Shown here piece by piece: positions 3,074 through 30,461 of a stretch of DNA of 34,827 nt. Position 1 is the first letter of the stretch. Every line of letters starts with the position of its first letter. Position numbers and translations under genes: made by a program. The DNA is from a bacterium (GTDB taxonomy: Bacteria; SZUA-182; DTGQ01; JAFGSM01): assembly GCA_049472355.1 (NCBI GenBank), contig JBLIRP010000036.1, positions 1 through 34,827 of the forward strand, in the 5' to 3' direction. Below the pieces are notes generated by a model. That model searched no databases and was not told the DNA's origin. It saw only the letters and a program-made list of their open reading frames with translations.

Positions 3074-4018
3074 ATGGACCGCATAACGATCGACTCCATT
3101 GAACTGGTCCTCTCGCATCCGGACCAGCAGGAAAGGGAATGGATCGGCCAGGAGGAGCTCCTGGAACAGATCCTTGCATGCTGGCTCGTCCTGACACCGG
3201 ATGATTTCCCCTTGTGTCCCCGCTTGCTGGGCAAGCCCGGCATGGGAAAGACGACCCTGGCCATAGCCGCGGCGCGCACCCTGGGAAAGCCTGTCTACCT
3301 TTACCAGTGCACCATGGATACCCGACCCGAGGACCTCATCATTACCCCGGTTATCGCCAACAATGGGAGGATTCAATACCATGGGAGCTCTCTGCTGACG
3401 GCAATGATACGGGGAGGGGTGGCAATTCTCGACGAGGCCAATCGTATGAGTGAGAAATCATGGGCGTCCCTCGCCCCGCTGCTGGATAACCGCCGGTACG
3501 TGGAGAGCATCATCGCCGGCATCAAGATCCACGCGCACCCCGAGTTCCGCTGCTGTGTCACCATGAACGACGATGCATCGACCTATGAGGTGCCCGATTA
3601 CATCATTTCCCGCCTTCAGCCGATGATCCACCTCGACTTCCCTGACAAGGAGGAGGAACTGGCGATCCTGAGGTACAACCTCAACTTCGCACCCGAGGAA
3701 ATTTTGCGCCTCACCGTGGCCTTTCTGCAAAAAAGCCATGAGGCCCGATTGGAATACAGCATCCGGGATGGTCTGAGCATAGCCCGGTATGCCATGAAAA
3801 TGAGGGGGGGTACGTCGAGGAAGCACCCCATGAGATTGCGGGAGGCATTTCAAAGGGCGGTGGAACAGGTCCTGGGCAAGGATGCCCTCGATATAAGAAA
3901 AAAGGCGGCACAGATCAATGCGAGGAATCTGAACAATATCGTCTTCCTGGAGGACTTCTTCATGAATCAGAAGGACTGGGACAAGGGCAATCAGGAGGAA
4001 GGAGAACGGGGGCAGTAG
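3074..4018 (+). CDS. MoxR/CbbQ-like AAA+ ATPase (AAA_5)
   Basis: GKPGMGKT Walker A, ILDEANR Walker B, AHPEFR...TMN sensor region; GAGGA RBS upstream. Confidence 0.9.
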   Translation: MDRITIDSIELVLSHPDQQEREWIGQEELLEQILACWLVLTPDDFPLCPRLLGKPGMGKTTLAIAAARTLGKPVYLYQCTMDTRPEDLIITPVIANNGRIQYHGSSLLTAMIRGGVAILDEANRMSEKSWASLAPLLDNRRYVESIIAGIKIHAHPEFRCCVTMNDDASTYEVPDYIISRLQPMIHLDFPDKEEELAILRYNLNFAPEEILRLTVAFLQKSHEARLEYSIRDGLSIARYAMKMRGGTSRKHPMRLREAFQRAVEQVLGKDALDIRKKAAQINARNLNNIVFLEDFFMNQKDWDKGNQEEGERGQ

Positions 4019-4021
4019 TGC

Positions 4022-5854
4022 ATGGGAAAAAGGATTCTCGTCAAGGACGGCAGGCTGTGGCTTGACAACATCTGCCTGGTGCCGGTTATTTCAGGGAGGG
4101 TGGCCTTTGCCCACGAGGTGAAGGAGACCTTTTTGAATACCCCATTTGACTGCATTGCCGTAGGGCTGCCTGCATCCTTCCATTCCCTGAGCATCCAGGG
4201 GATCAATGTGTTGCCCTATATTTCGGTCATCGTCTCGGATGAGGCAGAGGAGGGAAGTTGCAGCTATTTCCCCATTGATCCCTGCGACGGCATGATCGAG
4301 GCCTTACGGCTCGGTATGGAGGAGGGCCTTCCGATTCGATGTATTGACCGGGAGATGGATGCGATCCCCTTGTCCGGCCTTATCCTTCCGGATGAATACG
4401 CAGTCCACAGGATAGGCCTGTCCGCATATGTCCAAACGGCCTTTTCCGCCTTTGACACCAAGGAAGAGGACAGCCAGGCACGACACATGGCCTCCAGGCT
4501 CCAGACACTCAGCTTTGAATATGAAAGGGTCCTCTGTGTGTTTTCCGTACACCACCTTCCGGGTATCCTTCACTACTATCAGCATGAATACGGCGATATT
4601 CCTTCAGGCAGGAAGCCGCGGGAGGTAAGGCTCTTTTCGGCGCATCCCGATTCACTCTATTTCGTTCTGGGAGAGCTCCCCTATATCACCTACCTGTATG
4701 AAAGGCTGAAGGGCACCCTCTCGTTCGAGGAGTTCGAAAAGACCGAGGCGGTCAAGATGCTCCTGCTCGAGACCAGGGACGAGTTTCACAAGGAATTCCG
4801 CGAGGAGATTTACCGGATCGGTCATCAGGGCATTCAGTCATCCCTTCAATTCATACGGAACCTCTGTATTCTCAAAAAGAGGCTCACCCCCGATCTTTAC
4901 GAACTGGTGGTAGGGGCAAAGGGGGTCATGGGAAACGACTTTGCCGTAAAATTGCTTGAGGTGGCGAAATTCTATCCCTTTATGGACATCTCGCCCGCCC
5001 ACCCTCCCCTCAAAATGACTGACCGGTATATCGACAGGGGCGGCTCCTCTGTTCCGGCCTTCAGGAGGGTGCCCACCATGGCCAAGGAGTGGAGGCGGAT
5101 CAGCCTCGAAAAGAGGCCGGACAAGAGGCAAAAAAGGAGGTGGCGGACGTACTGGAATCCTGATTCGGTATGCTCCTGGCCTCCCGAGGACGAGATCATC
5201 GAAAACTTCTGCGGGTATATCCGCAAGCGCGCCCTGAAGCTCGTGGGGATTTCCCAGGTGCGGGTCGAGGAATTCCAGAGCACCCTCAAGGACGGCATCC
5301 ACCTCCGGGAGACATTGAGAAACCTGCATGTAGGGAAAATCTACGTCAAGGAGGAACCCCAGATCCAGGGTGAGGTGGGTGCGGTGATTTTTATCTTTGA
5401 TGAGGACCGGGAGGGGGACAGGTATCCTTACAAACTGACCTGGCATGCCGAGCACGAGAATGAGTCCACCCTCGTCTTCTACGCCACGGATTTCAGGAAC
5501 GACCTGGTGGGGCCCTCTATAGGGCGATCATTTTACGGCGGCGCCCTGTTTCTCTATCCCCCGCAATTGATACCGGACGTATGGACGAACCCTCGCTTCG
5601 ACGCGGCCGGGGATAGTGCCGAACGGCTCATGATGGCAGGTCTATATTATTCCCGCGACCGGTATGTCGCCGTCGTGGCGCACCGGAAGCCTTCCCCGAT
5701 TATCAGTGAGTATGCGAGAATCCAGCAGAAACGGCTGGTGTTTCTCCCCCTGTCCGCGTTCAGCCACAGGACGCTCCAGAGGCTCCGCTATTTCCATGTG
5801 TTGAATGGGAAGCACGTGCGAAACTGGGCCGCGCACTTCATCAGGGGGCGTTAA
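4022..5854 (+). CDS. Conserved hypothetical protein, probable partner of the MoxR ATPase
   Basis: 610-aa ORF starting 3 nt after the ATPase stop, with ordinary protein composition; function not recognised. Confidence 0.8.
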   Translation: MGKRILVKDGRLWLDNICLVPVISGRVAFAHEVKETFLNTPFDCIAVGLPASFHSLSIQGINVLPYISVIVSDEAEEGSCSYFPIDPCDGMIEALRLGMEEGLPIRCIDREMDAIPLSGLILPDEYAVHRIGLSAYVQTAFSAFDTKEEDSQARHMASRLQTLSFEYERVLCVFSVHHLPGILHYYQHEYGDIPSGRKPREVRLFSAHPDSLYFVLGELPYITYLYERLKGTLSFEEFEKTEAVKMLLLETRDEFHKEFREEIYRIGHQGIQSSLQFIRNLCILKKRLTPDLYELVVGAKGVMGNDFAVKLLEVAKFYPFMDISPAHPPLKMTDRYIDRGGSSVPAFRRVPTMAKEWRRISLEKRPDKRQKRRWRTYWNPDSVCSWPPEDEIIENFCGYIRKRALKLVGISQVRVEEFQSTLKDGIHLRETLRNLHVGKIYVKEEPQIQGEVGAVIFIFDEDREGDRYPYKLTWHAEHENESTLVFYATDFRNDLVGPSIGRSFYGGALFLYPPQLIPDVWTNPRFDAAGDSAERLMMAGLYYSRDRYVAVVAHRKPSPIISEYARIQQKRLVFLPLSAFSHRTLQRLRYFHVLNGKHVRNWAAHFIRGR

Positions 5855-6451: not shown

Positions 6452-7384
6452 TCAAGGAGCAGGGAAGATCGCCCTGGCTGCCATCGCTGTCCAGCCTTCC
6501 TGCGAGGCTGTCTCCATCACCTCGAATCCCGCCCCGAGCAGCCTGTCCGTGATTCTTCCCTGATTCTCCTCGACGATACCGGAGCATATAAATATTCCTC
6601 CATGCCGCAACACGGTATGGAGCCGGGGAATCAGGGCATCGATGACCTCCGAGGTGATGTTGGCGACAACCATGTCAAAGGCATCGTGCACCTCATCGAG
6701 GAGGTCCCCTCGTTGCACCCGGAAGCACTCGTAACATGTCCGGTTGAGTGAGAGGTTTTCCCCGGCGACATCGACCGCCACCTGGTCGGAATCGATCCCC
6801 AGTCCCTTTCCCGCCCCGAGCTTGGCAGCGGCAATCAGGAGGATACCCGAGCCGGCGCCGACATCCAGAACGGAATCGCCCTTCTGCAGGTAGCGTTCGA
6901 TCAGGATGACGCACAGGCGGGTGGAAGGATGGGTGCCGGTGCCGAATGCCATCCCGGGATCGATTGTCACCACGATATCATGAGGGGCGGGATCGTACGC
7001 CCTCCATGTCGGGGTGACCACGATGCGGCCGGAGATCCGTTGGGGCCGGAAGTACGCCTTCCACGACTCGGCCCAATCCTCCTCATCCACAGCACGGAAG
7101 GTTATCCTGTAGTGCATGTCCAGCCTCTTCCCCAGCAGATCGAGCATTTCCCTCGCCATGCGAACCTGCGCACCGATTCCACCGTTGATCGGCAGATAGG
7201 CGATAACCGCGTCATACCCGGAGATCGCCTGATCACGATGCCCCCTTGCCAGAGTCTCCCCATCCTCGGCATTTTCCATCACCACGCCCTGAAGACCGAG
7301 TTCATAAAACACATCCGATATGAGATCAGCGGCGCATTCCCTTTCAGCACATCGGTAATTGACCCTTGTTTCAAGCCATTTCAT
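6452..7384 (-). CDS. prmA: Ribosomal protein L11 methyltransferase
   Basis: MKWLE N-terminus, EEDWAESWK, IDPGMAFGTGTHPST, VLDVGAGSGIL, VVANI, SGI. Confidence 0.95.
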   Translation of the reverse strand: MKWLETRVNYRCAERECAADLISDVFYELGLQGVVMENAEDGETLARGHRDQAISGYDAVIAYLPINGGIGAQVRMAREMLDLLGKRLDMHYRITFRAVDEEDWAESWKAYFRPQRISGRIVVTPTWRAYDPAPHDIVVTIDPGMAFGTGTHPSTRLCVILIERYLQKGDSVLDVGAGSGILLIAAAKLGAGKGLGIDSDQVAVDVAGENLSLNRTCYECFRVQRGDLLDEVHDAFDMVVANITSEVIDALIPRLHTVLRHGGIFICSGIVEENQGRITDRLLGAGFEVMETASQEGWTAMAARAIFPAP

Positions 7385-7524
7385 CCTGAGGTTCCCTGCC
7401 GTGGTTTTCCGACATCGTGAGTCGAAGTTCCGTGGATAATCGCTTACAGGCATATCCAGGGAATGATTCGATCGATTTCAGTTTTACTATTCAAGACGTT
7501 TCACGCTAATGTGACGATATAACT

Positions 7525-7552
7525 ATTATAGATTTGACAGCGCGTCTGTCAA
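7525..7552 (-). promoter_or_regulatory. Putative sigma70 promoter for prmA, overlapped by a palindrome
   Basis: Minus strand TTGACA-N16-TATAAT; TTGACAG-cgcgt-CTGTCAA inverted repeat at 7534-7552. Confidence 0.6.
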
Positions 7553-7675
7553 TGATGTGCGTTCCTTGCCTGGTTCCATCGCCACGTATTGTTTGTAACG
7601 GGCAGTGCCGGGCATTGGTAATGTTGATAGAGGAACTATGTGCGGTACACCGGTTATTGAACAGGGCATGATCTA

Positions 7676-9727
7676 TTGTTCATCCTGCTTCCGATAGGAC
7701 ATGAAAATCAAGTCGTTCAAAGATTGCCGTATGTGACCATCGTCATCATATGCCTGAACGTGCTCATTTTCTTCTCCACCAGGCCGTCACAATCAAGGCT
7801 CGAACATGCCTTCGGAGAGGCATTCGAGCATGTCATCGATTTCTATGCCACACATTCGGATATCGATGTTGAAGGGATCATCGATAATGAAAATCGCGAC
7901 CTCAAAAACCTCCTGCTGGACATAAAACAAGAGTACGGAGGTGGTTGGATAGAGTCAACGTCAACAAATGCGGATAGGGAAAAACTCAAAGAACTGGTCG
8001 ATGAGCTCTCCGCCATCAAGTATTCCCTGCCCTCATATAAATATGGCCTTATTCCGAGCAATCCCAAACTGTTCGGCTACCTTTCCTCGATGTTCATGCA
8101 TGGGGGGTTCTTCCATCTGTTCTTTAACATGCTCTTTTTATGGCTGGCAGGCTGCACCATCGAGGACAAGTGGGGGCGGCCCCTGTATGCGGGATTTTAC
8201 CTGCTCGGCGGTATTATCGCCTCCCAGGCCCATGTGCTCATGTTTTCCCAAAGCACCATCCCTCTGATCGGGGCATCCGGCGCCATTGCGGGCGCCATGG
8301 GGGCGTTCCTGGTGAAGATGTATAAGACAAGGATCAGGATATTCTATGCCCTCTGGCTGTTTCTCTTTTTCGTCAAAACGGGGACCTTTCACATCCCGGC
8401 ATATGTGGCCCTTCCCTTCTGGTTTGTCCAGCAGATCTATTTTGCCCTGCTTTCAGCAGGCACAGGCGAAACCGGCGGGGTGGCCTTTTGGGCCCATATC
8501 GGGGGATTCGCCTTCGGGCTTGCCGTTGCCTACCTCATGCAGCAATTCGGTATTGAGGAACGGTTTATCCAGCCGGGCATAGACCAGAAGATATCCATAC
8601 AACAGCACCCGGGGCTCCTTGCGGCAATGGAAAAGTTCGAACGGGAACAGTACGATGAGGCCCTGGCGGACATCGAGGATTTTCTCAGGGTGGAACCGAA
8701 CAACCTCGACGGCAATATCATGTTGGCACAAATCTCTTCCAAACAGGGCAAGAACGAGGATGCGGCCCAGGCTTACAGGAAGGTGGCATCCCGCTACCTG
8801 GCCGATAGGAACCATCCCCTTGCAGTGAGCACGTACCTGGATATGAAGGGGCTCTCATCCAACGTCTCCCTGTTGCCCAGGGATCAGTTGGCCATCGGCT
8901 ACCTGTTTGAAAAGGAGGGAAATATGCAAGAGGCCGCCGATGCCTATGAACGATTGATCACCAGCTATCCGGAGGCCGGCGAGTGTATGAAGGCCGCTGT
9001 TTCCTATGGAAGCATGTGCTTCGGGGCTCTTAACCGTCCGGATAAGGCCATGGAATTATTCCAAAAGGCACGGGAACGGTGTGATCGTTATCCGGAATGG
9101 ACCGAACGGGTGGAGGATGGCCTGAAAAAGGCACAGGAGCTGATGGCCGGCAGAGACGCCGCGGGACAAGGCATGCCCACCCCTGCCGCCCCCAAGGCCG
9201 ATCCCTCCGAACCTGCCGGGCTGAAACCGAACACACCGGTTCATACGAAGGTTGAAACAGCCATGTCCGTGTGCCAGATGAGGCCCGCAAAACTATATTC
9301 CCAGGGAATCCTCATGGAAGGGAGGGAGAAGAAGGGCCTGTTCAAGTGGGAGATGATCAAGTTCATCGGTGTGGGCCGCATTGAACAGGGCCCCGCCGAC
9401 GGGGGCGGCACCCGGATCATCGACCTCATCTATGCGGTCGATCCATCCACGATAAAGTCGATCCGCATCCGGGAATCGACGATCGACTATACCACCCTTT
9501 TCAATCCACCCCCCAACAACCGCACGGAGGGATTCGCCACCCTGGTGAGAATGCTGCTGCAGAATACCACCATACCGGCCATACCCGCATCCCTCAGGGA
9601 TACAAACCTTGTTCCCGATTCCCTTATCCCGGCATTTCGTACCCTTGAGGATTACGAGGCATGCGTGAGGAACACGCTGCGGATAGCCAGCATATCAACA
9701 CCGATGCGCAGCCCCGTCACTGCCTGA
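7676..9727 (+). CDS. Rhomboid intramembrane serine protease fused to TPR repeats and a C-terminal domain
   Basis: SMFMHGGFFHLFFNMLFLW, catalytic GASG, GGVAFWAHIGGF, then TPR-like helices. TTG start is uncertain. Confidence 0.9.
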   Translation: MFILLPIGHENQVVQRLPYVTIVIICLNVLIFFSTRPSQSRLEHAFGEAFEHVIDFYATHSDIDVEGIIDNENRDLKNLLLDIKQEYGGGWIESTSTNADREKLKELVDELSAIKYSLPSYKYGLIPSNPKLFGYLSSMFMHGGFFHLFFNMLFLWLAGCTIEDKWGRPLYAGFYLLGGIIASQAHVLMFSQSTIPLIGASGAIAGAMGAFLVKMYKTRIRIFYALWLFLFFVKTGTFHIPAYVALPFWFVQQIYFALLSAGTGETGGVAFWAHIGGFAFGLAVAYLMQQFGIEERFIQPGIDQKISIQQHPGLLAAMEKFEREQYDEALADIEDFLRVEPNNLDGNIMLAQISSKQGKNEDAAQAYRKVASRYLADRNHPLAVSTYLDMKGLSSNVSLLPRDQLAIGYLFEKEGNMQEAADAYERLITSYPEAGECMKAAVSYGSMCFGALNRPDKAMELFQKARERCDRYPEWTERVEDGLKKAQELMAGRDAAGQGMPTPAAPKADPSEPAGLKPNTPVHTKVETAMSVCQMRPAKLYSQGILMEGREKKGLFKWEMIKFIGVGRIEQGPADGGGTRIIDLIYAVDPSTIKSIRIRESTIDYTTLFNPPPNNRTEGFATLVRMLLQNTTIPAIPASLRDTNLVPDSLIPAFRTLEDYEACVRNTLRIASISTPMRSPVTA

Positions 9728-16207: not shown

Positions 16208-17728
16208 TCATCCGTGTTTGCGTATCCCGAGCTTCCTCAACCGCGAATCAAAGGTGGAACGGTTTAATCCCGCAGCCCTGGCACACTTGGAGATGTTCCA
16301 GCGGTTTTGTTCAAGCAATTGGAGGACATACTCCCTCTCCAGGTCCTTCCACGAGCGATCGTCGAGGGTACGGGGCCTGTCCGGGACACGGCCCGATCCG
16401 GGCATTCGTTGCCGGGGCTCTGTATCGAAGGATTCCGGTGGGTTAACAACCATAAAGTGCTTCGGCAGATTGTCGAGGGAAATGACCGGATCGTCGTTTA
16501 CCACAATGATATGTCTGACAAAGTTTTCAAGCTCCCTGATATTCCCCCTCCAGGGATAGTGCACCAGGCGGTCCAGGGCCTCATTGGACAGCCTCTTCGG
16601 CTTGATGCCCAGCCGTCTTGACTCCCTGTGGATAAAGCCTTCCAGGAGCAGCGGAATATCCTCACCCCTGTTTCTCAGGGGAGGAAGGTGCAGGGGGAGG
16701 ACGTTCAGCCGATAGAACAGGTCTTCCCTGAATCGCTTCTCGGCAATCGCCTCTTTCAGATTGGCATTGGTTGCCGCTACGATCCGAACATCAACCCTTT
16801 TGGAAACATTACTGCCGAGGGGTTTGATCTCCCCGTCCTGAATGAACCGCAACAGGCGCGCCTGGAGATCATAGGACATATCGCCGATTTCATCCAGGAA
16901 CACGGTCCCCCCGTTTGCGGTCTCAAAAAGGCCGTCCTTATCCCTGACCGCACCGGTAAACGCGCCCCGTTTATGCCCGAACAATTCGCTCTCCAGGAGG
17001 GTTTCCGGGATGGCGCAGCAGTTTTGCACCAGATAGGGATTCTCGCGGCGGTTGCTCAAACGGTGGAGCTCCCGCGCAAACAGTTCCTTACCCGTGCCGC
17101 TTTCCCCGGTGATCAGCACAGGATAATCAACCCTGGCATAGCTCTTCAGCTTCTCGTACTCGTTGAGAAAGCATCTGCTTTGACCGATGATCGCCTGATG
17201 GTCCTTAAACTCGCCAATGATCTTTTTGAGCTCCCTGTTTTCCTCGAGCTGCTTGTGGTAGTCGAAGTACTTGCTGATGGCGATTGAGCCCACCTTTATA
17301 ATATCCTCAATTAATTCAAGGTAGTCCTTGTCCAGGTTCATGATGTTTCCGCTGCTCATGACATCGATGAGCTCAAGTGCGCCGAACACCTCACCGGATT
17401 CGAGGATGAGGGGGAAGCAGAGTATGAGGTTGCTCTTCAACGCAAAGTCCTGTTCGATTTGTTGAAAGTGCCGCTCGTCTTCACCGGCCTTTGCAATCGT
17501 CCTTCGCCCGTTTTCTATCACCCACCCCACAATGCTGGGGTGGTCGCTGCGTATGCTGATACCCTTCACCTTTTCGCTTTCCTCGCCCAGCGCCTCGATG
17601 CACAGGTACCTGGCCCCCTTTTTGACCCAAATGGATCCCCGTTCGACGTTCTGCAGCTTCAGGAGACTTGAAAGAAAGGCATTGAGGATGTCAGCGGTTT
17701 CGAATGGCTTTTTGATCATGGCGCACAC
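16208..17728 (-). CDS. Sigma54-dependent enhancer-binding protein (GAF-AAA+-Fis HTH)
   Basis: N-terminal GAF domain, [52 protein letters not shown]-terminal HTH. Start is GTG 17728 or ATG 17719. Confidence 0.95.
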
Positions 17729-21746: not shown

Positions 21747-22224
21747 CCTTGGAGTAGCATCGAAAAGGTAAACGCGCCTGCGCTCAGTTCAAAGCACCAC
21801 TTGCAATTGCCCGGCGATGGGACGTGAGATCATCGTTGGCGGTGACTTGCCTGGTGACCCGATTATCTGTACCCGATGAATAAGAATGGTCGCAACGGGT
21901 CACCAGGTCGGGTCAAGTGCCCTTGCTATAATTTTTTACAAATAGCGTGCAAGATAATGTTAATTTGTTTAGGCGTGTGCTTCGAACCACTAAACAAATT
22001 AACAAGGATGAACTTTCTCCCTCTGCTATCAGTCATGTTTTTGCTACACCATAGTATAGCTTCCTCAAGGATTTAGAATGTGCTCCACCAGATGTGTAGC
22101 TTATAATTTAAATTATCTCCTTTCTAATATCACTGATTGATAAAGCATTTGTTCTTTTCAGTATGAATCAATGTGTATAATATTAACAGACTCAACAGTA
22201 ATATCTAATTTATTTACTCTATAA

Positions 22225-22839
22225 TTAATTAAAAGTAGCTGAGAAAAGCAAACCGTAGGAGATGTTTTTAATCTTGCCCTCATCTTCGTCTGGAACTCTT
22301 CCGAAATAACCAAAAATCGCTAGACCAAGACCCCAATTATCAGAAACCCACCATTCTTTGCCCATGTTTAGATATAGTCCATAACCAGTATCAGAGGTTC
22401 CTTCATAACTATTGAATTCAATCGTATCTTTTGCCAAATTCAAAGAGCCGCCTATATAGACATTAGTTGGCATAAAGTAATATGTTATACCAATACCAAA
22501 ATCAGAAATTCTAGAAGTTGTGTCGAATGTAGAATACTTAACACCATTTAATTCTATATCTGGATCTGAGATACTGATTCCACCTAATGTACCAAAAATT
22601 ATTAAATTTTCTTTAATCGCTCCACCAATATCTAAACGAAAGGCTGAACCGTTCCCTGAAACTTCCATTTCAGTCCCGTCACTGTACCCTGTTCCTTTTG
22701 ATTTAGTATCAGCAATACCTAATTGCATTCGCAAATAGAATCCTTTGTGCTCTCGAAGACCATAGGCATAAGAAAATGTACCATATGCCATTGTAATCAA
22801 ATAAACTGCTATAATTGCAATTAATGATATCTTTTTCAT
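22225..22839 (-). CDS. Secreted outer-membrane beta-barrel protein (AT-rich, probable integron cassette gene)
   Basis: Signal peptide, amphipathic beta strands, GKEWWVSDNWGLG, C-terminal SATFN; much lower GC than its neighbours. Confidence 0.8.
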   Translation of the reverse strand: MKKISLIAIIAVYLITMAYGTFSYAYGLREHKGFYLRMQLGIADTKSKGTGYSDGTEMEVSGNGSAFRLDIGGAIKENLIIFGTLGGISISDPDIELNGVKYSTFDTTSRISDFGIGITYYFMPTNVYIGGSLNLAKDTIEFNSYEGTSDTGYGLYLNMGKEWWVSDNWGLGLAIFGYFGRVPDEDEGKIKNISYGLLFSATFN

Positions 22840-22946
22840 TTTAATTTAGCCCCTTTTTATAAAATGATCTGATCAAATTCTATCTACGAAGCTGTTCTAT
22901 AATAACTTTCAATTTATAAACAAATCTCCATAAAAAGCCAAAGCAA

Positions 22947-23084
22947 TCAAATAGGAAATGTTTCATTTGGTCTTATCGGCAGATGATGCAAAACTTCTCG
23001 GGTAGTACAAGATAAAATAATAGTCGAGCAAAAAGACAGTGCGGCAAACATCTTTGGTATTTTACTATGCACGATATGCTCCAT
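22947..23084 (-). pseudogene. Truncated lipoprotein-like gene stub (45 aa)
   Basis: AAGGAGG RBS, then MEHIVHSKIPKMFAALSFCSTIILSC with a lipobox-like ILSC, then an early stop. Confidence 0.35.
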
Positions 23085-23130
23085 TTTTTATCCCTCCTTT
23101 CATTTTTAACATAAATTAATTCATAGCGTT

Positions 23131-23348
23131 TCATGCAAACTCAAGTTCTCCAACCTCGTGAACACATGGGATTCTGCCGCGGTTTAGTTCTTCATAAATA
23201 TCTCTTAGATTCTCTTTTCGCTCTTCAATAGTTTCTTCTTGTTTAGATCTTCAATTGTTTCTCCTTGGGTCATGTGGTCTGGATAGTCTTCGAGGCATCC
23301 AATCCACATATCATCCTCTTTGTAAAAAATAAATCTTACGGTTTTCAT
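23131..23348 (-). pseudogene. hicB: HicB-family antitoxin, frameshifted
   Basis: MKTVRFIFYKEDDMWIGCLEDYPDHMTQGETIEDL / KENLRDIYEELNRGRIPCVHEVGELEFA*, split by a 26-bp imperfect duplication; followed by an overlapping ATGA stub MKRYELI (hicA-like). Confidence 0.75.
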
Positions 23349-23693
23349 TAAATTATCATCTTCTTTTTTCCCTAATAGCGTATACGCCGTGAATTCGGAT
23401 GAGAGTGAATCACGAAGGGTATCGATTATCCGATCAGTCGAGCCTTGATTTCCGCACCTGTTGAATAAATAGACACACTCTGCCTATCCCATTATTGACC
23501 TATTGTAAAGTTTCTGTTATTTTACTGAATAGGTTCATATTCATTTCCGGAAGCTATCAAATCGGACATCTGTCTTTTAGCGTCTAAAGACTATCCCAAT
23601 GTAGCTGAATTCCTGGTGGGTAATGGTATTTTGAGAATAGTATCAGAAGCTTAGGATAATATCAATATTCAAGTAAAAGGGAATGTCAAGCAT

Positions 23694-24006
23694 ATGGATA
23701 CCTTAACGGACGTCTATAAACAGTGCCTTGAGGCAGAGAAGGTCCCGCAAAACCGTATCAGGTGGTATCTATCATGGGTCCCGAAAATCTCCTGTGCCGC
23801 TTGAACAACGAAACCCGGAGGATGTTGAGGAAGAGATCAATCGCCTGTTTGATCACCTGACAGGAACATATGCGCTCATGGGGGGATTGTTGTATGGAAC
23901 CGGTATGCGGCTGATGGAATGCATACGCCTGCGTGTGGCTGACGTCGATTTTGATCTTGGGCAGTCCGGCCGGCAACTGGGTGTCAGGAGTCCTGTAGAC
24001 ATGTGA
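23694..24006 (+). pseudogene. intI: Integron integrase remnant with internal deletions
   Basis: EEINRLFDHLTGTYALMGGLLYGTGMRLMECIRLRVADVDFD (box I) is fused directly to the IntI-type C-terminus GVRSPVD; an N-terminal piece (RIRWYLSWV) lies in another frame. Confidence 0.8.
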
Positions 24007-24018
24007 CGGGAGGCATGC

Positions 24019-25737
24019 ATGTTTCTTCCCACCACCCGCGAGGAAATGGAAAGGCTGGGATGGACCGGCCTGGACGTGATCCTTGTTTCAGGGGATACCT
24101 ACATCGACTCCCCCTTTTCGGGTGTTGCCCTGATCGGCAAGGTTTTGCTCGAAAAGGGGTATCGAGTGGGCATCATTGCCCAGCCCTGCCTGGACAGCGC
24201 ACGGGACATTGCCCGGCTGGGGGAGCCCTCCCTGTTCTGGGGGGTCACATCGGGCTCGGTCGATTCCATGGTGTCCAACTATACGGCATCCGGAAAGAGG
24301 CGAAACAGGGACGACCTCACCCCGGGCGGATTCAATGCCAGAAGGCCGGATAGGGCCCTCATCGCCTATGCGAACCTCATACGCAGGCATTTCAAACATA
24401 CGGTTCCCGTCGTGATGGGCGGCATCGAGGCCAGCCTGCGGAGGATTGCCCACTATGATTACTGGAGCGATGCGATACGGCGTTCGATCCTGTTCGATGC
24501 AAAGGCGGATATCATTGTATACGGCATGGGGGAGCGGGCGTGCCTGGAGATTGCGGAGAGACTGAAAAAGGGCTCGGATCTCCATGATTGCAGGGGGATA
24601 TGCTGCATCGGCGATGCCCCTCCGCACGGATACATACGGCTTCCCTCCTTTGAAGAGGCGGCGGATGACCGGCACCTGTTTTCCCGGATGTTCACCACAT
24701 TCTACGAGAACACCGACCCTGTTCATGCACAGGGCCTCTGCCAGCGACATGGGAAGCGATACCTCATCCAGAACCCGCCCCAGCCGGACCTTTCAGCGGA
24801 GGAACTGGACCGGGTCTACAATCTCGACTACGAACGGGAGGTCCACCCCTTCCATGCCGGGGAGGGGGGCGTCAAGGCTATCGAAACCATCCGGTTTTCC
24901 ATCACCACCCACCGGGGATGTTATGGTGAGTGCAGCTTCTGCGCCCTGTCCATACACCAGGGAAGGCGGGTGGTTTCCCGGAGTGAGGAATCGATCCTCA
25001 AAGAGGCCGAAGCAATGACCAGACATCCTGCGTTCAAGGGGATTATCGCAGACGTGGGGGGTCCCACCGCCAACATGTACGGCATCGAGTGCGGCAGAAA
25101 GGAGAAGTCGGGGGCGTGTAAGGACCGGCATTGCCTTTTCCCGTCGCTATGCCCCACACTGAAGCCGAGCCACTTGCGTCAGGTCAATCTTTTGCGGCGC
25201 CTCAGGGGGATTCCGAAGGTCACCAGGGTATTCGTCGCATCGGGGATCCGCTACGACCTTATCCTGAGCGATAAGCGATCGGGGGAAACCTATCTGCGGG
25301 AGCTGGCAGCCCACCACATCTCAGGCCAGTTGAAGGTTGCGCCCGAGCACGTGGCGGACCATGTGCTGAGGCTCATGGGAAAGCCCTCCCGGCGGCTCCT
25401 TCTCCGCTTCAGGCAGCTCTTTTTCGAAATCACAAGGGAGCTCGGCGCCCGGCAATTCCTCACCTACTACTTCATCGCCGCGCATCCCGGGTGTACAACG
25501 GAGGACATGATGAAACTCAAGCGGTTCGCCGCGCGCGAGCTCAGGCTTCGGCCCGAACAGGTGCAGATCTTCACCCCCACCCCGTCGACCTTTTCCACGC
25601 TCATGTACTGGACTGGTATCGATCCGTGGACTGGCGAAGGGATCTTTGTGGAGCGGGACAGGGCCGGGAGGGAACGGCAGAAGCGGATCATGAAATACGA
25701 TGCCCGGCGATTTATGGAGATGTCGAACGCCCCCTAA
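24019..25737 (+). CDS. ygiQ: YgiQ-family radical SAM protein
   Basis: MFLPTTREEM..GW..LDVILVSGDTYIDSP, GGIEASLRR, HRGCYGECSFC, DVGGPTANMY, LKVAPEH, EQVQIFTPTP. Confidence 0.93.
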   Translation: MFLPTTREEMERLGWTGLDVILVSGDTYIDSPFSGVALIGKVLLEKGYRVGIIAQPCLDSARDIARLGEPSLFWGVTSGSVDSMVSNYTASGKRRNRDDLTPGGFNARRPDRALIAYANLIRRHFKHTVPVVMGGIEASLRRIAHYDYWSDAIRRSILFDAKADIIVYGMGERACLEIAERLKKGSDLHDCRGICCIGDAPPHGYIRLPSFEEAADDRHLFSRMFTTFYENTDPVHAQGLCQRHGKRYLIQNPPQPDLSAEELDRVYNLDYEREVHPFHAGEGGVKAIETIRFSITTHRGCYGECSFCALSIHQGRRVVSRSEESILKEAEAMTRHPAFKGIIADVGGPTANMYGIECGRKEKSGACKDRHCLFPSLCPTLKPSHLRQVNLLRRLRGIPKVTRVFVASGIRYDLILSDKRSGETYLRELAAHHISGQLKVAPEHVADHVLRLMGKPSRRLLLRFRQLFFEITRELGARQFLTYYFIAAHPGCTTEDMMKLKRFAARELRLRPEQVQIFTPTPSTFSTLMYWTGIDPWTGEGIFVERDRAGRERQKRIMKYDARRFMEMSNAP

Positions 25738-26029
25738 TAACATTCGGACATGCACGTCGTGATCGAGGCATATCCTTCGTGCGGATAACTCGTTGAAAAA
25801 GACCATTCGATTAGGCACTCAAGGGGTGTAACCATGCGATAACAGAATAGCCGTTTCGTTGCTCACACCGGGGGTATCAAAGGAGAATTCCCCTGAGATC
25901 CTCCAAAGGAGGGAACGGAACCCGTTGAGATACTATATCCATAATCGCTATGCTAAAAATCATAAATCGTATATTTTTATGGACAGAACAGCACGAAGAC
26001 AACCGATAATGAAGTTTTTTATTCAATAT

Positions 26030-26042
26030 AATCAATAAGTTA
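26030..26042 (+). promoter_or_regulatory. IHF binding site
   Basis: AATCAATAAGTTA matches WATCAANNNNTTR, with an upstream A/T tract, just 5' of a sigma54 promoter. Confidence 0.65.
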
Positions 26043-26065
26043 AAAACTGCCATTATCACCCTCCA

Positions 26066-26080
26066 TGGCACATTCCTTGC
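26066..26080 (+). promoter_or_regulatory. Sigma54 -24/-12 promoter
   Basis: TGGCAC-attcc-TTGC, an exact consensus. Confidence 0.8.
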
Positions 26081-26452
26081 TCTCTAACGGGGTAGAACGG
26101 TCACGCTTCCCCGTGTAGTTCTCCATGCGACTCCTTCTCATTATGCAGTTCCTTCTTCCCTCTCATATACTGTGGGAGGCCATAGCCGACATATCACCAC
26201 GAACGCGCGATAATCGATACCACCTGTTCCCAGAACAACGTGGCCGTCCAACTCGAGGTGGGCATCTTCATGCCCACCTCGAGAAAATACCCTGCTGTAC
26301 CGGGCAGGATTGCATACACTTCCGGGATTACTCTTACTCACATCTTACATCGGAATGAAAGGGGGTGTGGAGGTGCAACACTATCGGCAATGGTTCCGGA
26401 ACGAGGAACCAGGGTTTGAAAAATGCCTTTGCTGGTGGAGGAGAAGGAGAAA

Positions 26453-27331
26453 ATGAAAACCGCGCAATCATTGCTTCTATTGATGAGTATGGCGCTTATA
26501 GGGATCGTCATTCTCATTGCAGGGGCCTGCAATGTACACCCGTCCATCCTTTTCTCAGGGAGCGGAAATATCTACGGTAATGTCCCGGGGGTATTCGGGA
26601 TGTATCCCTCCATAGGGGGGATCTATAATCTCCATGGGTATGGAGGATTGTACGGCGGGCTCTATGGAATCGGGTCAGGCCTGAACCTCGGATTCCCCGC
26701 GATCCCCGCCGGAATATACGGAATGGGCCTGTTTGGCGGAAGTCTCGGCGGCCTCTACGGACTCAATCCCTTTCTCGGCCTTGGGGCCATGTACCGCATG
26801 TTCGGGCCATGGGCACTCCTGAACAACATCGGCAATGCCGGCAACATCGGCAATACTATCTCTCTTGGCTCACTGTCCCTCGGCCTATTGCCTGCGTCAT
26901 TGTTACCGGCGGTTCCTTCCGTTCCTGTGGTCGCCGCAGAGCAGGCAGGCACATGGACCGGAACCTGGTACAGCTATATCAAAATCACCGATTTCGGATC
27001 AATGAACCTCACCCTCATAGAGGATGCAACAAACAGCCTTCTCTCCGGGGAGGTAAATCTTCTGCTGAATAATATAACCGCCTCGATACCGGCTCAGGTG
27101 AAGGGCGTCTACAGCGGCGGCTCTACATTCATCCTCTCCGGTGGAAATAATACCATATTCACCAGCACGTTCCTGCTCGTTCCCTCAGCCACCCTCTACT
27201 CCATCCAGCTCACCTGCACGTTGACGAGTCCGACCAGCATGACCGGCTCATATGTCATTCAGGATCTTGTAAAACTGTTTAGCAGTGATATCGGAAACTT
27301 CACCCTTACCTGTATTTCCGTGCCTCTGTAA
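26453..27331 (+). CDS. Secreted Gly/Leu/Tyr-rich protein with a C-terminal AEQAGTW beta domain (paralog A)
   Basis: GGAG RBS, hydrophobic N-terminal signal ending AGAC, GLYG repeats, C-terminal domain homologous to 27681-28682. Confidence 0.8.
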   Translation: MKTAQSLLLLMSMALIGIVILIAGACNVHPSILFSGSGNIYGNVPGVFGMYPSIGGIYNLHGYGGLYGGLYGIGSGLNLGFPAIPAGIYGMGLFGGSLGGLYGLNPFLGLGAMYRMFGPWALLNNIGNAGNIGNTISLGSLSLGLLPASLLPAVPSVPVVAAEQAGTWTGTWYSYIKITDFGSMNLTLIEDATNSLLSGEVNLLLNNITASIPAQVKGVYSGGSTFILSGGNNTIFTSTFLLVPSATLYSIQLTCTLTSPTSMTGSYVIQDLVKLFSSDIGNFTLTCISVPL

Positions 27332-27604
27332 GCCATCAATCAGGGGGTGGATGTCATTCCCCGTGAGGATTCCCGAATCATCCGGAAACGGACGGCATGG
27401 GTTCCCTCATTACCACTGAACCGTCTCAGCCGAACCTGGAGAGAACTTTCGTGCCCACCCAGGGGCGGCATCCATCCTCTCCCAAGTAAAAAACAAGAAA
27501 TTGCAGCATACAGTGTCTTTGCAATGATGAATGGCCCAATTCTGCCGGGCCATTGATTGTAAGCCACTGATAATAGCACGCCCTTATCGGTATGGTTTTT
27601 CCCG

Positions 27605-27651
27605 AAAAAAAAGAAAGAATGCGGGCTGCCTTGTTTTATTCAGGCAGCCCG
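27605..27651 (-). terminator. Rho-independent terminator of paralog B
   Basis: cgggctgcct / aggcagcccg 10-bp stem with a minus-strand T tract. Confidence 0.7.
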
Positions 27652-27680
27652 TCTTCATGGTTAGGAGGGTAGGGAGATGG

Positions 27681-28682
27681 CTATATAACCGGTGCAGTCA
27701 GGGTCAGTTGGAATTCACCTGAATCGGCATTCAGCTTATAGATATCCTGCACATCATACGTCCCTGTCATCGTGACCGGGCTTGTCATGACACAGACAAG
27801 ATTGATGGTGTAAAGGGGAATGGCGCTGGTAAAAACCGGCACCAGCACCAGCGAGCTGAAGAAACTCTGATTCCCTCCGGAGAGGATGAATGTCGCCACT
27901 GCCCCGCCTGTTCCGGTAATGCCCAAACTGCCGGGTCCAACGGTAGTGAGATATCCTGTTACATCGGCAGGTATCGAATTTGTGACCTTGTTCAGGAACA
28001 GATTCACCTGCCCGCTGAGCACACCCGTCAGCACATCCTCAACGAGGCTCATATCCATGAACCCACCCTTCAGGGTAACGAGACTCGTCCAGGTGCCTGA
28101 CCACGTGCCGGCCTGTTCCGCTGTGAGCACGGCCGTTTGTATCGGAGTACTCTGAGTGATTGTGTTAGGAAGACCCGCATTGCCCAGGAGCCCCATTGTG
28201 CCGAGGAGTCCTCCGAGGCCGGAGAGCCCGCCAAGGCCATACAAGCCGCCAAGGCCGCCGAGACCGCCGAGACCGGAAAGACCGTACAGGCCACTCAGGC
28301 CGCAGAGCCCGCCAAGGCCCAGGCCATACAGGCCCCCGAGACCGGAAAGCCCGTACAGGCCGTATAATCCCCCGTACATGCCGCCAACCCCATAGAGACC
28401 CATGCCGTAGAGCCCGCCCAAGCCATACAAACCGCCCAGACCGTACAGGCCCCCGAGGCCGGAAAGACCATACAGGCCGTATGAACCTCCATACAGGCCA
28501 CCAAGGCCATAGAGACCCATGCCGTACAATCCTCCAAATCCGTATGATCCAAGTCCTCCATAAAATCCCGACGAAAAAAGACCAAAGTAGGCATTGCCGG
28601 GGGAGACAGCAAGCAGGACCATCAATGCGAGGATTATGATCACGATTCCTGAACCCAGTGTTGCACGCACTAACCTCTTCAT
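27681..28682 (-). CDS. Secreted Gly/Leu/Tyr-repeat protein with a C-terminal AEQAGTW beta domain (paralog B)
   Basis: GGAGGT RBS, signal peptide ending PGNA, about 130 aa of GLYGLG/GLSGLG repeats, shared C-terminal domain. Confidence 0.85.
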   Translation of the reverse strand: MKRLVRATLGSGIVIIILALMVLLAVSPGNAYFGLFSSGFYGGLGSYGFGGLYGMGLYGLGGLYGGSYGLYGLSGLGGLYGLGGLYGLGGLYGMGLYGVGGMYGGLYGLYGLSGLGGLYGLGLGGLCGLSGLYGLSGLGGLGGLGGLYGLGGLSGLGGLLGTMGLLGNAGLPNTITQSTPIQTAVLTAEQAGTWSGTWTSLVTLKGGFMDMSLVEDVLTGVLSGQVNLFLNKVTNSIPADVTGYLTTVGPGSLGITGTGGAVATFILSGGNQSFFSSLVLVPVFTSAIPLYTINLVCVMTSPVTMTGTYDVQDIYKLNADSGEFQLTLTAPVI

Positions 28683-28909
28683 GCAGTACCTCCATTTATG
28701 AGATCCATTCCAACAATCCGTTCGAATCCGCATGGGGAAACAATCACCGCAGTCACTCATGTTCAGACAATCCCGGTGGTCTGTTCATGAAAAAATGATG
28801 ATACCATGGCATGTGCATCATGTCTTACATCCTCTGCTCCATAATAATACATATAAAACAAGTAGATAACGATATGTTCAAGAAAATAAATGGGGTGAGA
28901 TACGTAGTC

Positions 28910-29272
28910 TCAGGATTTGTAGCGCTGAAGGATCAATTGCCTCCTGCAATCCGGATGATGCAGGTTTTCGAGGAATAACAAGCCTGGAACATAAGATCTG
29001 TTCCGGTGAGATGTTGTACACATATCCACAAGGGCAAGGCACAGTGCGGCATCAGCACCGCAGGTGCGACAGCAGATCTGCTCATCGTGCCCAATATGAG
29101 GTGAAAGGGAAAAGTGAAAATCCATGATCTCATCGGGAAAGACACATCTGCACTGAGCATACTCTTCACCTTGCAGGGAGAGAAGGGCGCATATGCTGAA
29201 GACGAGGATAATCACGACACCGGCATAAAACCGCCGGCGCACTGCAATATTCCTTAACAGGCAGGTACTCAT
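28910..29272 (-). CDS. Small membrane-anchored Cys/His-rich hypothetical protein
   Basis: AGGAG RBS before ATG 29272, one TM segment, CRC/CCRTC and His clusters; lies between a sigma54 motif and paralog B. Confidence 0.5.
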   Translation of the reverse strand: MSTCLLRNIAVRRRFYAGVVIILVFSICALLSLQGEEYAQCRCVFPDEIMDFHFSLSPHIGHDEQICCRTCGADAALCLALVDMCTTSHRNRSYVPGLLFLENLHHPDCRRQLILQRYKS

Positions 29273-29336
29273 AAATGCTCCTACCTTACGAGGGTGTGCT
29301 GTTAGCTGCTGGTGACTGTTGCCGACTTTTTTATAA

Positions 29337-29351
29337 GCAAGGAGCATTCCA
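29337..29351 (-). promoter_or_regulatory. Probable sigma54 promoter
   Basis: Minus strand TGGAAT-gctcc-TTGC (GG-N10-GC) with AT-rich upstream DNA. Confidence 0.55.
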
Positions 29352-29579
29352 GAGGGAAAAATTTTGACTATCTTTTATTTTTTCTAGAATATCAGTAATA
29401 AAGTTGCTTTTTTATATCCAAGTTACCCCATTTCTCATAAACCGACCATACAATGTATGATCAAGAGACATAGGTTTTATGGATATTCATGAAGAAGAGA
29501 TATCGGCACAATCGAAAGGAGGGGTATGGAACAGCCGGGCGCACTGCCGGCCTTTGGCACGGGTGGACGAAGCAGCGGT

Positions 29580-30461
29580 TTAGTGAGCGTTTGTCGAAAG
29601 GGCTTCACCCTGTGCATTCCTATAGAGATCCCGCGCCCTATAGGAGCTCCTGACAAATGGTCCGCTCGCTGCATCGGAAAATCCCATGCCGAGCGCGATC
29701 CCCTTCCACCGATCGAATTCCTCCGGAGGTACGAACCGTTCCACCGGCAGGTGATCCCTTGTCGGCTGGAGATACTGCCCCAGGGTCAGGATGCTGCAGC
29801 CTGCGGCACGCAGATCACCGAGGGTTTCCTTCACCTCCTCACCCGATTCCCCGAGTCCGAGCATGAGACCCGACTTCAATGGGATGCCGGGCGCATACGC
29901 CCCCGCATTTCTGAATATCTCGATGGAGCGATGATAGTCGGCACCGGGACGGACCAGGGGGTACAGGCGGGGTACCGTCTCGATATTGTGGTTCAGCACG
30001 GCAGGCCGGGCATCAAGGACCGTCCGGAGGGCATCGATGCTCCCCTGCAGGTCGGGAATCAGAACCTCAACGAGGGCATCGGGCACCCTTCCCCTGATTG
30101 CCTCGATCGTTGCCGCAAAAAGCCCTGTCCCGCCATCCGGGAGATCGTCCCGGGTAACCGAGGTAATCACCACATAGTGTAATCCCATTCTCTTGACCAT
30201 CTCTGCGACCCTGGCAGGTTCTTCAGTATCCGGAGGGCCGGATGGCCCGTGCTCGACCGCACAGAAACGGCACCTGCGCGTGCACCGGGGCCCCATAATG
30301 AGAAACGTCGCCGTATGGCGGGAAAAACATTCCCACATGTTGGGACATTGCGCCTCCTGGCATACGGTATGGACACGGCCTGCATGAATAAGCCCCCTCA
30401 CCTGCTCGAACGCACCCCCCTTGGGAAGTCTCCGCCTCAACCATGGGGGTTTTCTGACCAT
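29580..30461 (-). CDS. lipA: Lipoyl synthase
   Basis: RKPPWL, CQEAQCPNMWEC (CX4CX5C), CTRRCRFC, VTRDDLPDGG, NHNIETV, RSSY. Confidence 0.97.
   Translation of the reverse strand: MVRKPPWLRRRLPKGGAFEQVRGLIHAGRVHTVCQEAQCPNMWECFSRHTATFLIMGPRCTRRCRFCAVEHGPSGPPDTEEPARVAEMVKRMGLHYVVITSVTRDDLPDGGTGLFAATIEAIRGRVPDALVEVLIPDLQGSIDALRTVLDARPAVLNHNIETVPRLYPLVRPGADYHRSIEIFRNAGAYAPGIPLKSGLMLGLGESGEEVKETLGDLRAAGCSILTLGQYLQPTRDHLPVERFVPPEEFDRWKGIALGMGFSDAASGPFVRSSYRARDLYRNAQGEALSTNAH

Follow-up and report, generated by a model that had tools for sequence, protein, structure and literature searches.

Two convergent genes, here called A and B, lie on a 34,827-nt stretch of a contig from an uncultured sediment bacterium (JBLIRP010000036.1, GTDB lineage SZUA-182; DTGQ01; JAFGSM01), which we refer to as the window at its whole length. 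Both are members of a real, so far undescribed protein family, which is restricted to one bacterial order and multiplied within its genomes. Their products combine a signal peptide, a long and nearly uncharged block rich in Gly, Leu and Tyr, and a common C-terminal domain for which an eight-stranded barrel is predicted. The reading that we prefer, to which we grant about an even chance, is that these are Sec-exported two-block proteins, likely transcribed with sigma-54, which would self-associate through their sticky block into an extracytoplasmic layer or matrix. The window's own genome (G000 hereafter) measures 3.49 Mb and is 87.5% complete.

The open reading frames of the convergent pair extend over 26423..27331 on the plus strand and 27681..28760 on the minus strand. 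For gene A (26453..27331, plus strand, 292 residues) the ATG at 26453 was taken as the start because a GGAG a few bases upstream offers a Shine-Dalgarno sequence; the resulting length of 292 residues is also that of P0001, a metagenome protein 97% identical to the product of this gene. A signal peptide (26453-26527), with cleavage predicted after AGA, is followed by an irregular uncharged block rich in Gly, Leu, Tyr and Ile (26528-26926) and by the barrel domain (26927-27328), which ends at the stop codon. Gene B (28682..27681, minus strand, 333 residues) was given the ATG at 28682, since a GGAGG Shine-Dalgarno stands upstream, and shows the same order of parts: a signal peptide (28682-28590, predicted to be cut between PGNA and YFG), a GGLYG-type block of 156 residues, none of them charged (28589-28131), and the barrel domain (28130-27684), again closed by the stop codon. 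The two C-terminal domains are 45% identical over 160 columns (E 1e-33), and both contain the motifs AEQAGTW[T/S]GTW, TFILSGGN and MTG.Y. These had been singled out in an earlier note made from the letters of the window, whose description of a secreted paralog pair, with signal peptide, nearly charge-free block and shared C-terminal domain, was borne out in each of its elements. In B and most paralogs the mature N-terminus is predicted to be YYG or YFG, after a small-x-small site. The Cys that follows AGA in gene A raised the candidate of a lipoprotein, which was set aside as unlikely since the residue is not conserved, being a Tyr in P0001.

The pair is a small sample of a much larger set. 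A profile search with the two domains revealed 16 open reading frames (ORFs) in G000, in agreement with a search of the whole genome, and several of the family genes form adjacent pairs (contigs C58, C71 and C62). Across the phylum, the domain was found in 13 out of 20 species genomes, with 3-42 matches each; the window's order accounts for all of them, since each of its 13 genomes, G000 among them, has the domain, while the seven genomes from the rest of the class have none. An exhaustive profile search over 1,835,955,588 representative proteins yielded 247 hits with E<=1e-3; at the stricter limits of 1e-10 and 1e-30 there were 81 and 11. Word-indexed and pattern searches retrieved nothing but metagenome proteins without a name and records titled 'MAG: bacterium'. 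In genome G012, from a sister family of the order, long frames of up to 1027 residues are densely arrayed (contig C12, 72941-89095), and each carries several barrels. The databases of named families stayed silent. Neither A and B nor the 16 domains had a significant match in Pfam: A had no family at E<=1 and B only DUF6534, below the cut-off of that family (E up to 1), while no Pfam family of the avidin or lipocalin kind matched any of the 16 domains at E<=10. The domain had no match in NCBIfam, a sequence profile search of the PDB returned chance matches only (e.g., ND1 at E 0.007), and the Protein Atlas offered unnamed clusters of ~130 residues, the nearest named clusters scoring <0.85. Among open-access papers and preprints, no bacterial description of such proteins was found. 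The suspicion of an undescribed family with more paralogs, voiced in the earlier note, is in this way upheld, with 16 copies in the window's genome and no Pfam, NCBIfam or PDB sequence match.

Within this family, A and B fall in one subclade of 49-66% identity, although they are not each other's closest relatives: B is nearest to the paralog on contig C56 (62%) and A to those on C63 and C62 (the copy C62a; 56-57%), and a quick tree assigns them to different lineages, both of them supported and both with orthologs of their own. Consequently, the convergent pair is no fresh duplication, and a recent tandem event giving A plus B was ruled out. The arrangement itself is kept in a near-identical locus from another metagenome-assembled genome (MAG), L025, and in genome G009.

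The block that precedes the barrel is nearly free of charge. In B it holds no Asp, Glu, Lys or Arg in its 156 residues, with Gly at 40%, Leu at 25% and Tyr at 12%; gene A, where the block is less regular than in B, has one charged residue in about 145 mature residues, as read from the sequence. The block measures 104-171 residues in 13 tabulated paralogs, and those tabulated with the signal-peptide cut set (104-163 residues) have 0-4 charged residues each. At the DNA level the Gly/Leu/Tyr regions show only a weak array of 9/18-nt units (28216-28319, 68-69% matches), from which it follows that the repeats are maintained as a protein composition and not through recent slippage. The N-terminal region is of several types across paralogs (G/L/Y, P/F/S and A/F/P). 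A wider view comes from 158 matched proteins, drawn from the 150 best profile-search matches and 12 close relatives (two of them in common, for a total of 160): 123 have the barrel at the C-terminus, and what stands before it is a Gly/Tyr-rich region in 32, another uncharged region in 19, fewer than 45 residues in 56 (many of them fragments) and something else in 51. From the composition of the block we infer a structural, self-assembling role of the kind that the earlier note had advanced (sheath, fibre or amyloid).

Parallels to such a block exist in animal matrix proteins. Lamprin and related GGLGY-type proteins, as well as the Gly/Tyr/Leu tails of reptile corneous beta-proteins, use the same residues in short repeats, GGLYG here against GGLGY there. 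For lamprin, these GGLGY repeats are described as aggregating with one another to form fibrils (PMC8333314). GGLYG and LYGLGG are among the peptides that appear in work on the corneous beta-proteins of turtles (PMC8074788). The likeness is nevertheless one of composition: Pfam Lamprin was unmatched in A or B, and the present proteins are bacterial, carry a barrel and stand behind sigma-54 motifs.

A closer bacterial parallel gives rise to a different explanation, which we consider improbable: A and B would coat an extracytoplasmic inclusion in the style of sulfur globule proteins, with the uncharged block lying on a sulfur, mineral or lipid deposit and the acidic barrel turned to the water, an interface for which a two-block composition would be suited. 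Sulfur globule proteins are Sec-exported, extremely hydrophobic and structural, and are likened to keratins and plant wall proteins (PMC10386293). According to the same source, SgpA, SgpB and SgpC of Allochromatium vinosum (PF17228) share with the present family the Sec signal peptide, the hydrophobic and low-charge make-up and the presence of several paralogs per genome, and they have a structural coat role outside the cytoplasm, to which the composition of our proteins would suggest a counterpart (PMC10386293). However, there is no sequence match between the two groups, and the proteins of the family, with 27-31 kDa as estimated from their lengths, are in their mature form 2-3 times larger than SgpA-C (11-13 kDa; PMC10386293) and include a folded domain of ~120 residues; sigma-54 motifs and a small membrane partner gene, described below, further distinguish the units. 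PF17228 matched neither A nor B (E<=1) nor anything in the genome, a weak argument since the controls were silent too, and dsrA of the reverse Dsr pathway of sulfur storage, the one sulfur marker searched, was not found above its cut-off (best 40.9 bits against 392.85) in a genome that is 87.5% complete. Moreover, no inclusion is known for these uncultured bacteria.

The C-terminal domain, for its part, is predicted to be a soluble eight-stranded antiparallel up-and-down barrel of the avidin/calycin type. The AlphaFold model, built on the 16 paralogous domains, reached a mean predicted local distance difference test (pLDDT) of 85.4 and a predicted template modelling score (pTM) of 0.78, with eight strands of 6 to 12 residues and no helix. 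In a Foldseek search against the PDB (E 5e-5 to 5e-3, identities 7-18%), the leading matches were designed eight-stranded barrels, relatives of streptavidin and avidin, lipocalins, nitrophorins, the C-terminal barrel of NHBA and the Cap15 receptor. VIA-align, which is independent of Foldseek, placed two designed eight-strand barrels first (Z 14.4 and 13.6) and gave Z 11-12.6 to avidins, the Cap15 receptor and a QHNDH domain, with a root-mean-square deviation (rmsd) of 2.3-2.8 Å. The calycin- or avidin-like barrel that had been guessed from the GxW motif agrees with this predicted eight-stranded fold. Avidin, streptavidin and the designed barrels (PDB 8ah9, 6czj, 4bj8 and 2c1q) share with the family the predicted up-and-down barrel, a size of ~110-130 residues and the GxW start, whereas identities are 11-15%, the Pfam Avidin family is unmatched, and here the barrel is fused to a long low-complexity block.

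The same structural comparisons also brought up outer-membrane proteins. Were the domain an eight-stranded transmembrane barrel of the OmpA/OmpX/OmpW type, the Gly/Leu/Tyr block would be periplasmic, and the VIA-align matches to OmpW, OmpA, NspA, PagL, OprF and a designed transmembrane barrel (Z 11-12.5), together with a charge-poor domain and a terminal alternating strand G.F.L.L, are compatible with this possibility, which we nonetheless regard as very unlikely. The rmsd rises to 4.2-5.2 Å for the natural outer-membrane barrels, as against the values cited above for the soluble ones, and three of the predicted strands have only 6-8 residues; the chain ends in PVI, PVL or VPL, without a terminal aromatic residue, and the double GxW is a 'tryptophan corner' typical of soluble barrels. 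Distant relatives point the same way, as they place the barrel beside beta-helix, PKD, fn3, FG-GAP or DUF4214 domains or in tandem copies joined by Pro-rich linkers. On account of the better rmsd and short strands, of the chain ends and of these Pro-linked tandems and soluble neighbour modules, the domain is read as a soluble barrel.

A soluble barrel of this kind could alternatively work as a tethered ligand binder, holding a small hydrophobic molecule or a cofactor in the manner of avidins and lipocalins, while the Gly/Leu/Tyr block acts as a flexible spacer or as a tether to wall or membrane. The resemblance of the predicted fold to avidins, lipocalins, nitrophorins and the Cap15 nucleotide receptor speaks for such a function, as do a barrel that is conserved next to an N-terminal region that varies among paralogs, and the stand-alone secreted or lipo-proteins of ~135 residues found among the distant relatives. 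On the other hand, the columns without variation consist of Gly, Trp, Tyr and a single Ala, which are compatible with barrel geometry and point to no active site, and conserved polar pocket residues were not found in the alignment columns; the Avidin and lipocalin families of Pfam gave no match, and spacers rarely keep a strict charge-free, Tyr/Leu-rich composition over 100-160 residues in many paralogs. We see the ligand binder as an unlikely explanation, albeit one of some weight. The barrels are in addition acidic, with 6-11 Asp plus Glu against 0-3 Lys plus Arg in the 13 tabulated paralogs.

The neisserial heparin binding antigen NHBA, a surface protein with a long unstructured N-terminal region, presents a comparable layout. 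It and other Slam-dependent surface lipoproteins (PDB 6cuj and 5o1r) are exported and have a C-terminal eight-stranded barrel, to which our model aligns at Z 9.4-10.6. Unlike NHBA, fHbp and TbpB, the family has no lipobox, most paralogs showing sites in which cleavage falls between AxA and YYG and the Cys of gene A not being conserved, and there is no sequence similarity to them. A single match to the Slam-like family PF04575 was found in the genome (contig C46, 41695-42297, 49.8 bits), and none of the 16 family ORFs lies on that contig. The surrounding locus (C46, 41665-43209) consists of the Slam-like gene followed by large genes of 323 and 788 residues on the same strand, with a sigma-54-type site 534 nt upstream.

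The transcription of these genes is probably under sigma-54. Upstream of gene A, a -24/-12 element TGGCACATTCCTTGCT (TGGCAC-N5-TTGCT; 26066-26081, plus strand) has its GG at 26067-68 and its GC at 26079-80, from which a start at about 26092 is predicted. On the opposite side, the element TGGAATGCTCCTTGCT (TGGAAT-N5-TTGCT; 29351-29336, minus strand) predicts a start at about 29325, 53 nt before the ATG of a small gene that precedes gene B. Both show GG and GC doublets ten bases apart, arranged as in TGGCAC-N5-TTGCW. A pattern scan also found a match to the consensus of the integration host factor (IHF), AATCAATAAGTTA, at 26030-26042 on the plus strand, ~56 nt before the predicted start of unit A. 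The elements announced in the earlier note, that is, a left sigma-54 motif with an adjacent IHF site and a GG-N10-GC motif on the right, are accordingly all in place. In the locus L025 the left element is identical in a context that has diverged further upstream, the IHF match is kept in this 96% ortholog, and the right-hand motif occupies the matching position. The IHF consensus was present in 2 of 18 family promoters, for which reason it was dropped as a feature of the family.

Support also comes from enrichment. Counted over both strands, the 3.49-Mb genome has 88 occurrences of the pattern TGGNA[CT]-N5-TTGC[AT]. The family genes, 16 in number, are grouped in 13 units; a contig end cuts one of these, and the motif stands upstream of 9 of the 12 testable ones, against ~0.2 expected from the density of the 88 sites; the nine include the unit on contig C63, where the motif lies inside the stop-to-stop frame. 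When loci of relatives were gathered from other MAGs, with the five closest domains as query, 10 out of 14 carried the motif in coding orientation, at a distance of 70-1330 nt upstream of the domain start, a count that is not independent of the relatedness among these loci. The regulators are encoded as well: the genome has one rpoN (PF04552, 204 bits) and 32 matches to the sigma-54 activator family PF00158, 25 of them at E<=1e-50, with one activator located inside the window (16208..17728). Altogether, the sigma-54 regulation proposed earlier is backed by enrichment within the genome and by conservation outside of it, and the family units are likely transcribed from sigma-54 promoters.

As a candidate for the binding site of an activator, we propose the word ATTTTTATG. 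Of 18 family promoters, 6 carry it at 91-126 nt ahead of the -24 element, against none of 80 other sigma-54-type sites; it was picked by eye in AT-rich DNA, and the example in the window is at 25975-25983. The regulon, moreover, seems to extend beyond the family. With rough gene calls, 54 of the 88 sites lie between genes and have a gene less than 700 nt downstream, eight of these belonging to the family, and at least eight further sites precede other exported low-complexity proteins rich in Tyr and Gly, while one precedes a type IV pilin. It would appear from these promoters that sigma-54 governs a large set of exported Tyr/Gly-rich proteins in this organism. The at least eight sites in question are on contigs C108, C116, C127, C129, C138, C40, C57 and C59, and the exported types found behind such sites include, for example, YYGGGYYGGGG and SSSYYPSSSYGYSGYY. 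A compact arrangement is found on contig C58 of the same genome (665-8326), where an activator (7012-8037) that appears to have no sensory domain, a subtilase (3257-4963) with a fervidolysin-like prodomain and a family pair (1816-2739 and 665-1615) follow one another on the same strand, with a separate sigma-54-type site ahead of each.

Between the right sigma-54 motif and gene B lies the small gene already mentioned (29272..28910, minus strand), which encodes a single-pass membrane protein of 120 residues. The protein is basic at its N-terminus and has a single hydrophobic helix; it further shows the motif G.(E/H)Y.QC.C.FPDEI(L/M)D, with LQ(R/H)Y(K/N)S at the C-terminus. This gene is a conserved partner of a subset of the family. 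In G000, three further family genes have a paralog of it immediately upstream, and a sigma-54 motif precedes each of these; the gene also occurs in the loci L025, L028, L031, L033 and L034, and within the genus of the window strong full-length matches were obtained in four genomes, namely G000 and G008-G010. In the cases compared, the small gene sits 0.5-1.3 kb upstream of a barrel match on the same strand. No family was assigned to it by Pfam at E<=0.01 or by NCBIfam, and its AlphaFold model (mean pLDDT 52) is confident for the N-terminal helix only, with no fold that could be named.

The whole arrangement is reminiscent of the psp operon of Enterobacteria, in which a sigma-54 promoter with an IHF site drives, among others, the small membrane proteins PspB and PspC. 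Shared with it are the sigma-54 motif, the IHF match and a gene for a small single-pass membrane protein, and activators without a sensory domain, judged from their first residues, appear to be present in this genome too. The two systems differ in that the small protein here has no Pfam family at the threshold given above and the downstream product is an exported low-complexity protein instead of PspA.

Unit A has no small membrane-protein gene; in its place there is a structured 5' leader of 360 nt (26092..26452, plus strand), which has the appearance of an independent regulatory RNA. Its predicted fold has -134.4 kcal/mol (z -4.65), a stability that none of 100 shuffled sequences equalled, and in L025, where the leader is ~95% identical, a 14-bp hairpin at 26252-26283 is preserved by a two-sided change. 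A search of Rfam over 25700-29600 gave no match at E up to 1. Assembled metatranscriptome contigs from two runs of one study cover 26104-26271 in the leader, 27256-27482 at the end of gene A and in the spacer, and 27667-28886, with the whole of gene B. Neither strand nor true ends can be read from such contigs, nor can they show absence, and the lack of any over 26370-27173 (coding part of gene A) and 28916-29351 was not used as evidence. An adapter remnant abuts one of the contigs that start at 26104. A separate observation concerns the spacer after gene A, where an RNA contig of 135 nt (27348-27482) is flanked on both sides by adapter remnants, which suggests an abundant short fragment with defined ends; a few mismatches to the window place its origin in a related strain.

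In the mechanism that we favour, an activator protein would turn the units on upon a signal, and the exported products would behave as two-block amphiphiles, in which the uncharged Gly/Leu/Tyr block would stick to itself, much as is described for the GGLGY-type repeats of animal matrix proteins and with a likeness to the hydrophobic sulfur globule proteins, and the acidic barrel would provide a soluble head facing the water or a docking module. The small membrane protein, where a unit has one as B does, may help or anchor the neighbouring family protein. The outcome would be an extracytoplasmic layer or matrix, produced on the command of the activator. A broader version is conceivable, and we put it forward as a tentative idea that is more probably wrong than right: the order would make a novel type of switchable protein material, in which sigma-54 activators induce dozens of exported two-block proteins, each with an elastomer-like uncharged block and an acidic mini-barrel, that condense outside the membrane into a coat or matrix, with the small membrane protein starting or anchoring the assembly.

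Several points weigh against the self-associating layer. What it states on assembly, location and abundance is reached by indirect reasoning. Plain type-I signal peptides make the periplasm the default location in a diderm, and barrels of the avidin/calycin fold often bind small ligands, so that a carrier role would fit them. The block of gene A is far less repetitive than that of B, and three paralogs (on contigs C94, C64 and C17), which form a subclade with a Pro/Phe/Ser-type block, lack the motif. No genes for assembly, secretion or cross-linking recur beside the family units. Dityrosine cross-linking, which the earlier note suggested for a coat, would require an oxidant. Finally, both RNA contigs in the leader of gene A start at 26104, 24 nt after the GC of the -12 element and not at the ~12 nt expected, with the reservation that strand and true ends are not given by these contigs.

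The remaining features of the window bear less on these questions. A terminator-like hairpin followed by a T-run, read from the sequence, lies on the minus strand just past the stop of gene B (27603-27651, with a stem formed by 27622-27630 and 27643-27651); its loop of 12 escaped a hairpin scan in which loops were limited to 8. The neighbours in the window are housekeeping genes (a ygiQ-type radical SAM gene, lipA, lipB, lpd and gcvP), and because the surroundings of family units are either of this kind or differ from unit to unit, the gene neighbourhood gives no hint of function. Next to the radical-SAM gene, positions 22001-24006 are likely the remnant of a mobile element, with a GC content of 33-41% compared to ~55% and, at their end, a truncated integrase-like frame just before that gene (23728-24003; PF00589, 26.3 bits, slightly below the cut-off).

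Exported bacterial proteins that self-assemble, such as curli, chaplins or sulfur globule proteins, are few, and each of them has been informative on cell surfaces and materials. Here, an uncultured order of sediment bacteria carries an unnamed domain 3-42 times per genome, often fused to a Gly/Leu/Tyr block like those of animals. Whatever the function turns out to be, two families are now defined that could be added to the databases, a new one for the domain and one for the small partner protein. If the proposed assembly is true, these proteins would represent a new bacterial envelope material and a new use of the avidin-like barrel, as well as a rare case of sigma-54 control over much of the exported proteome.

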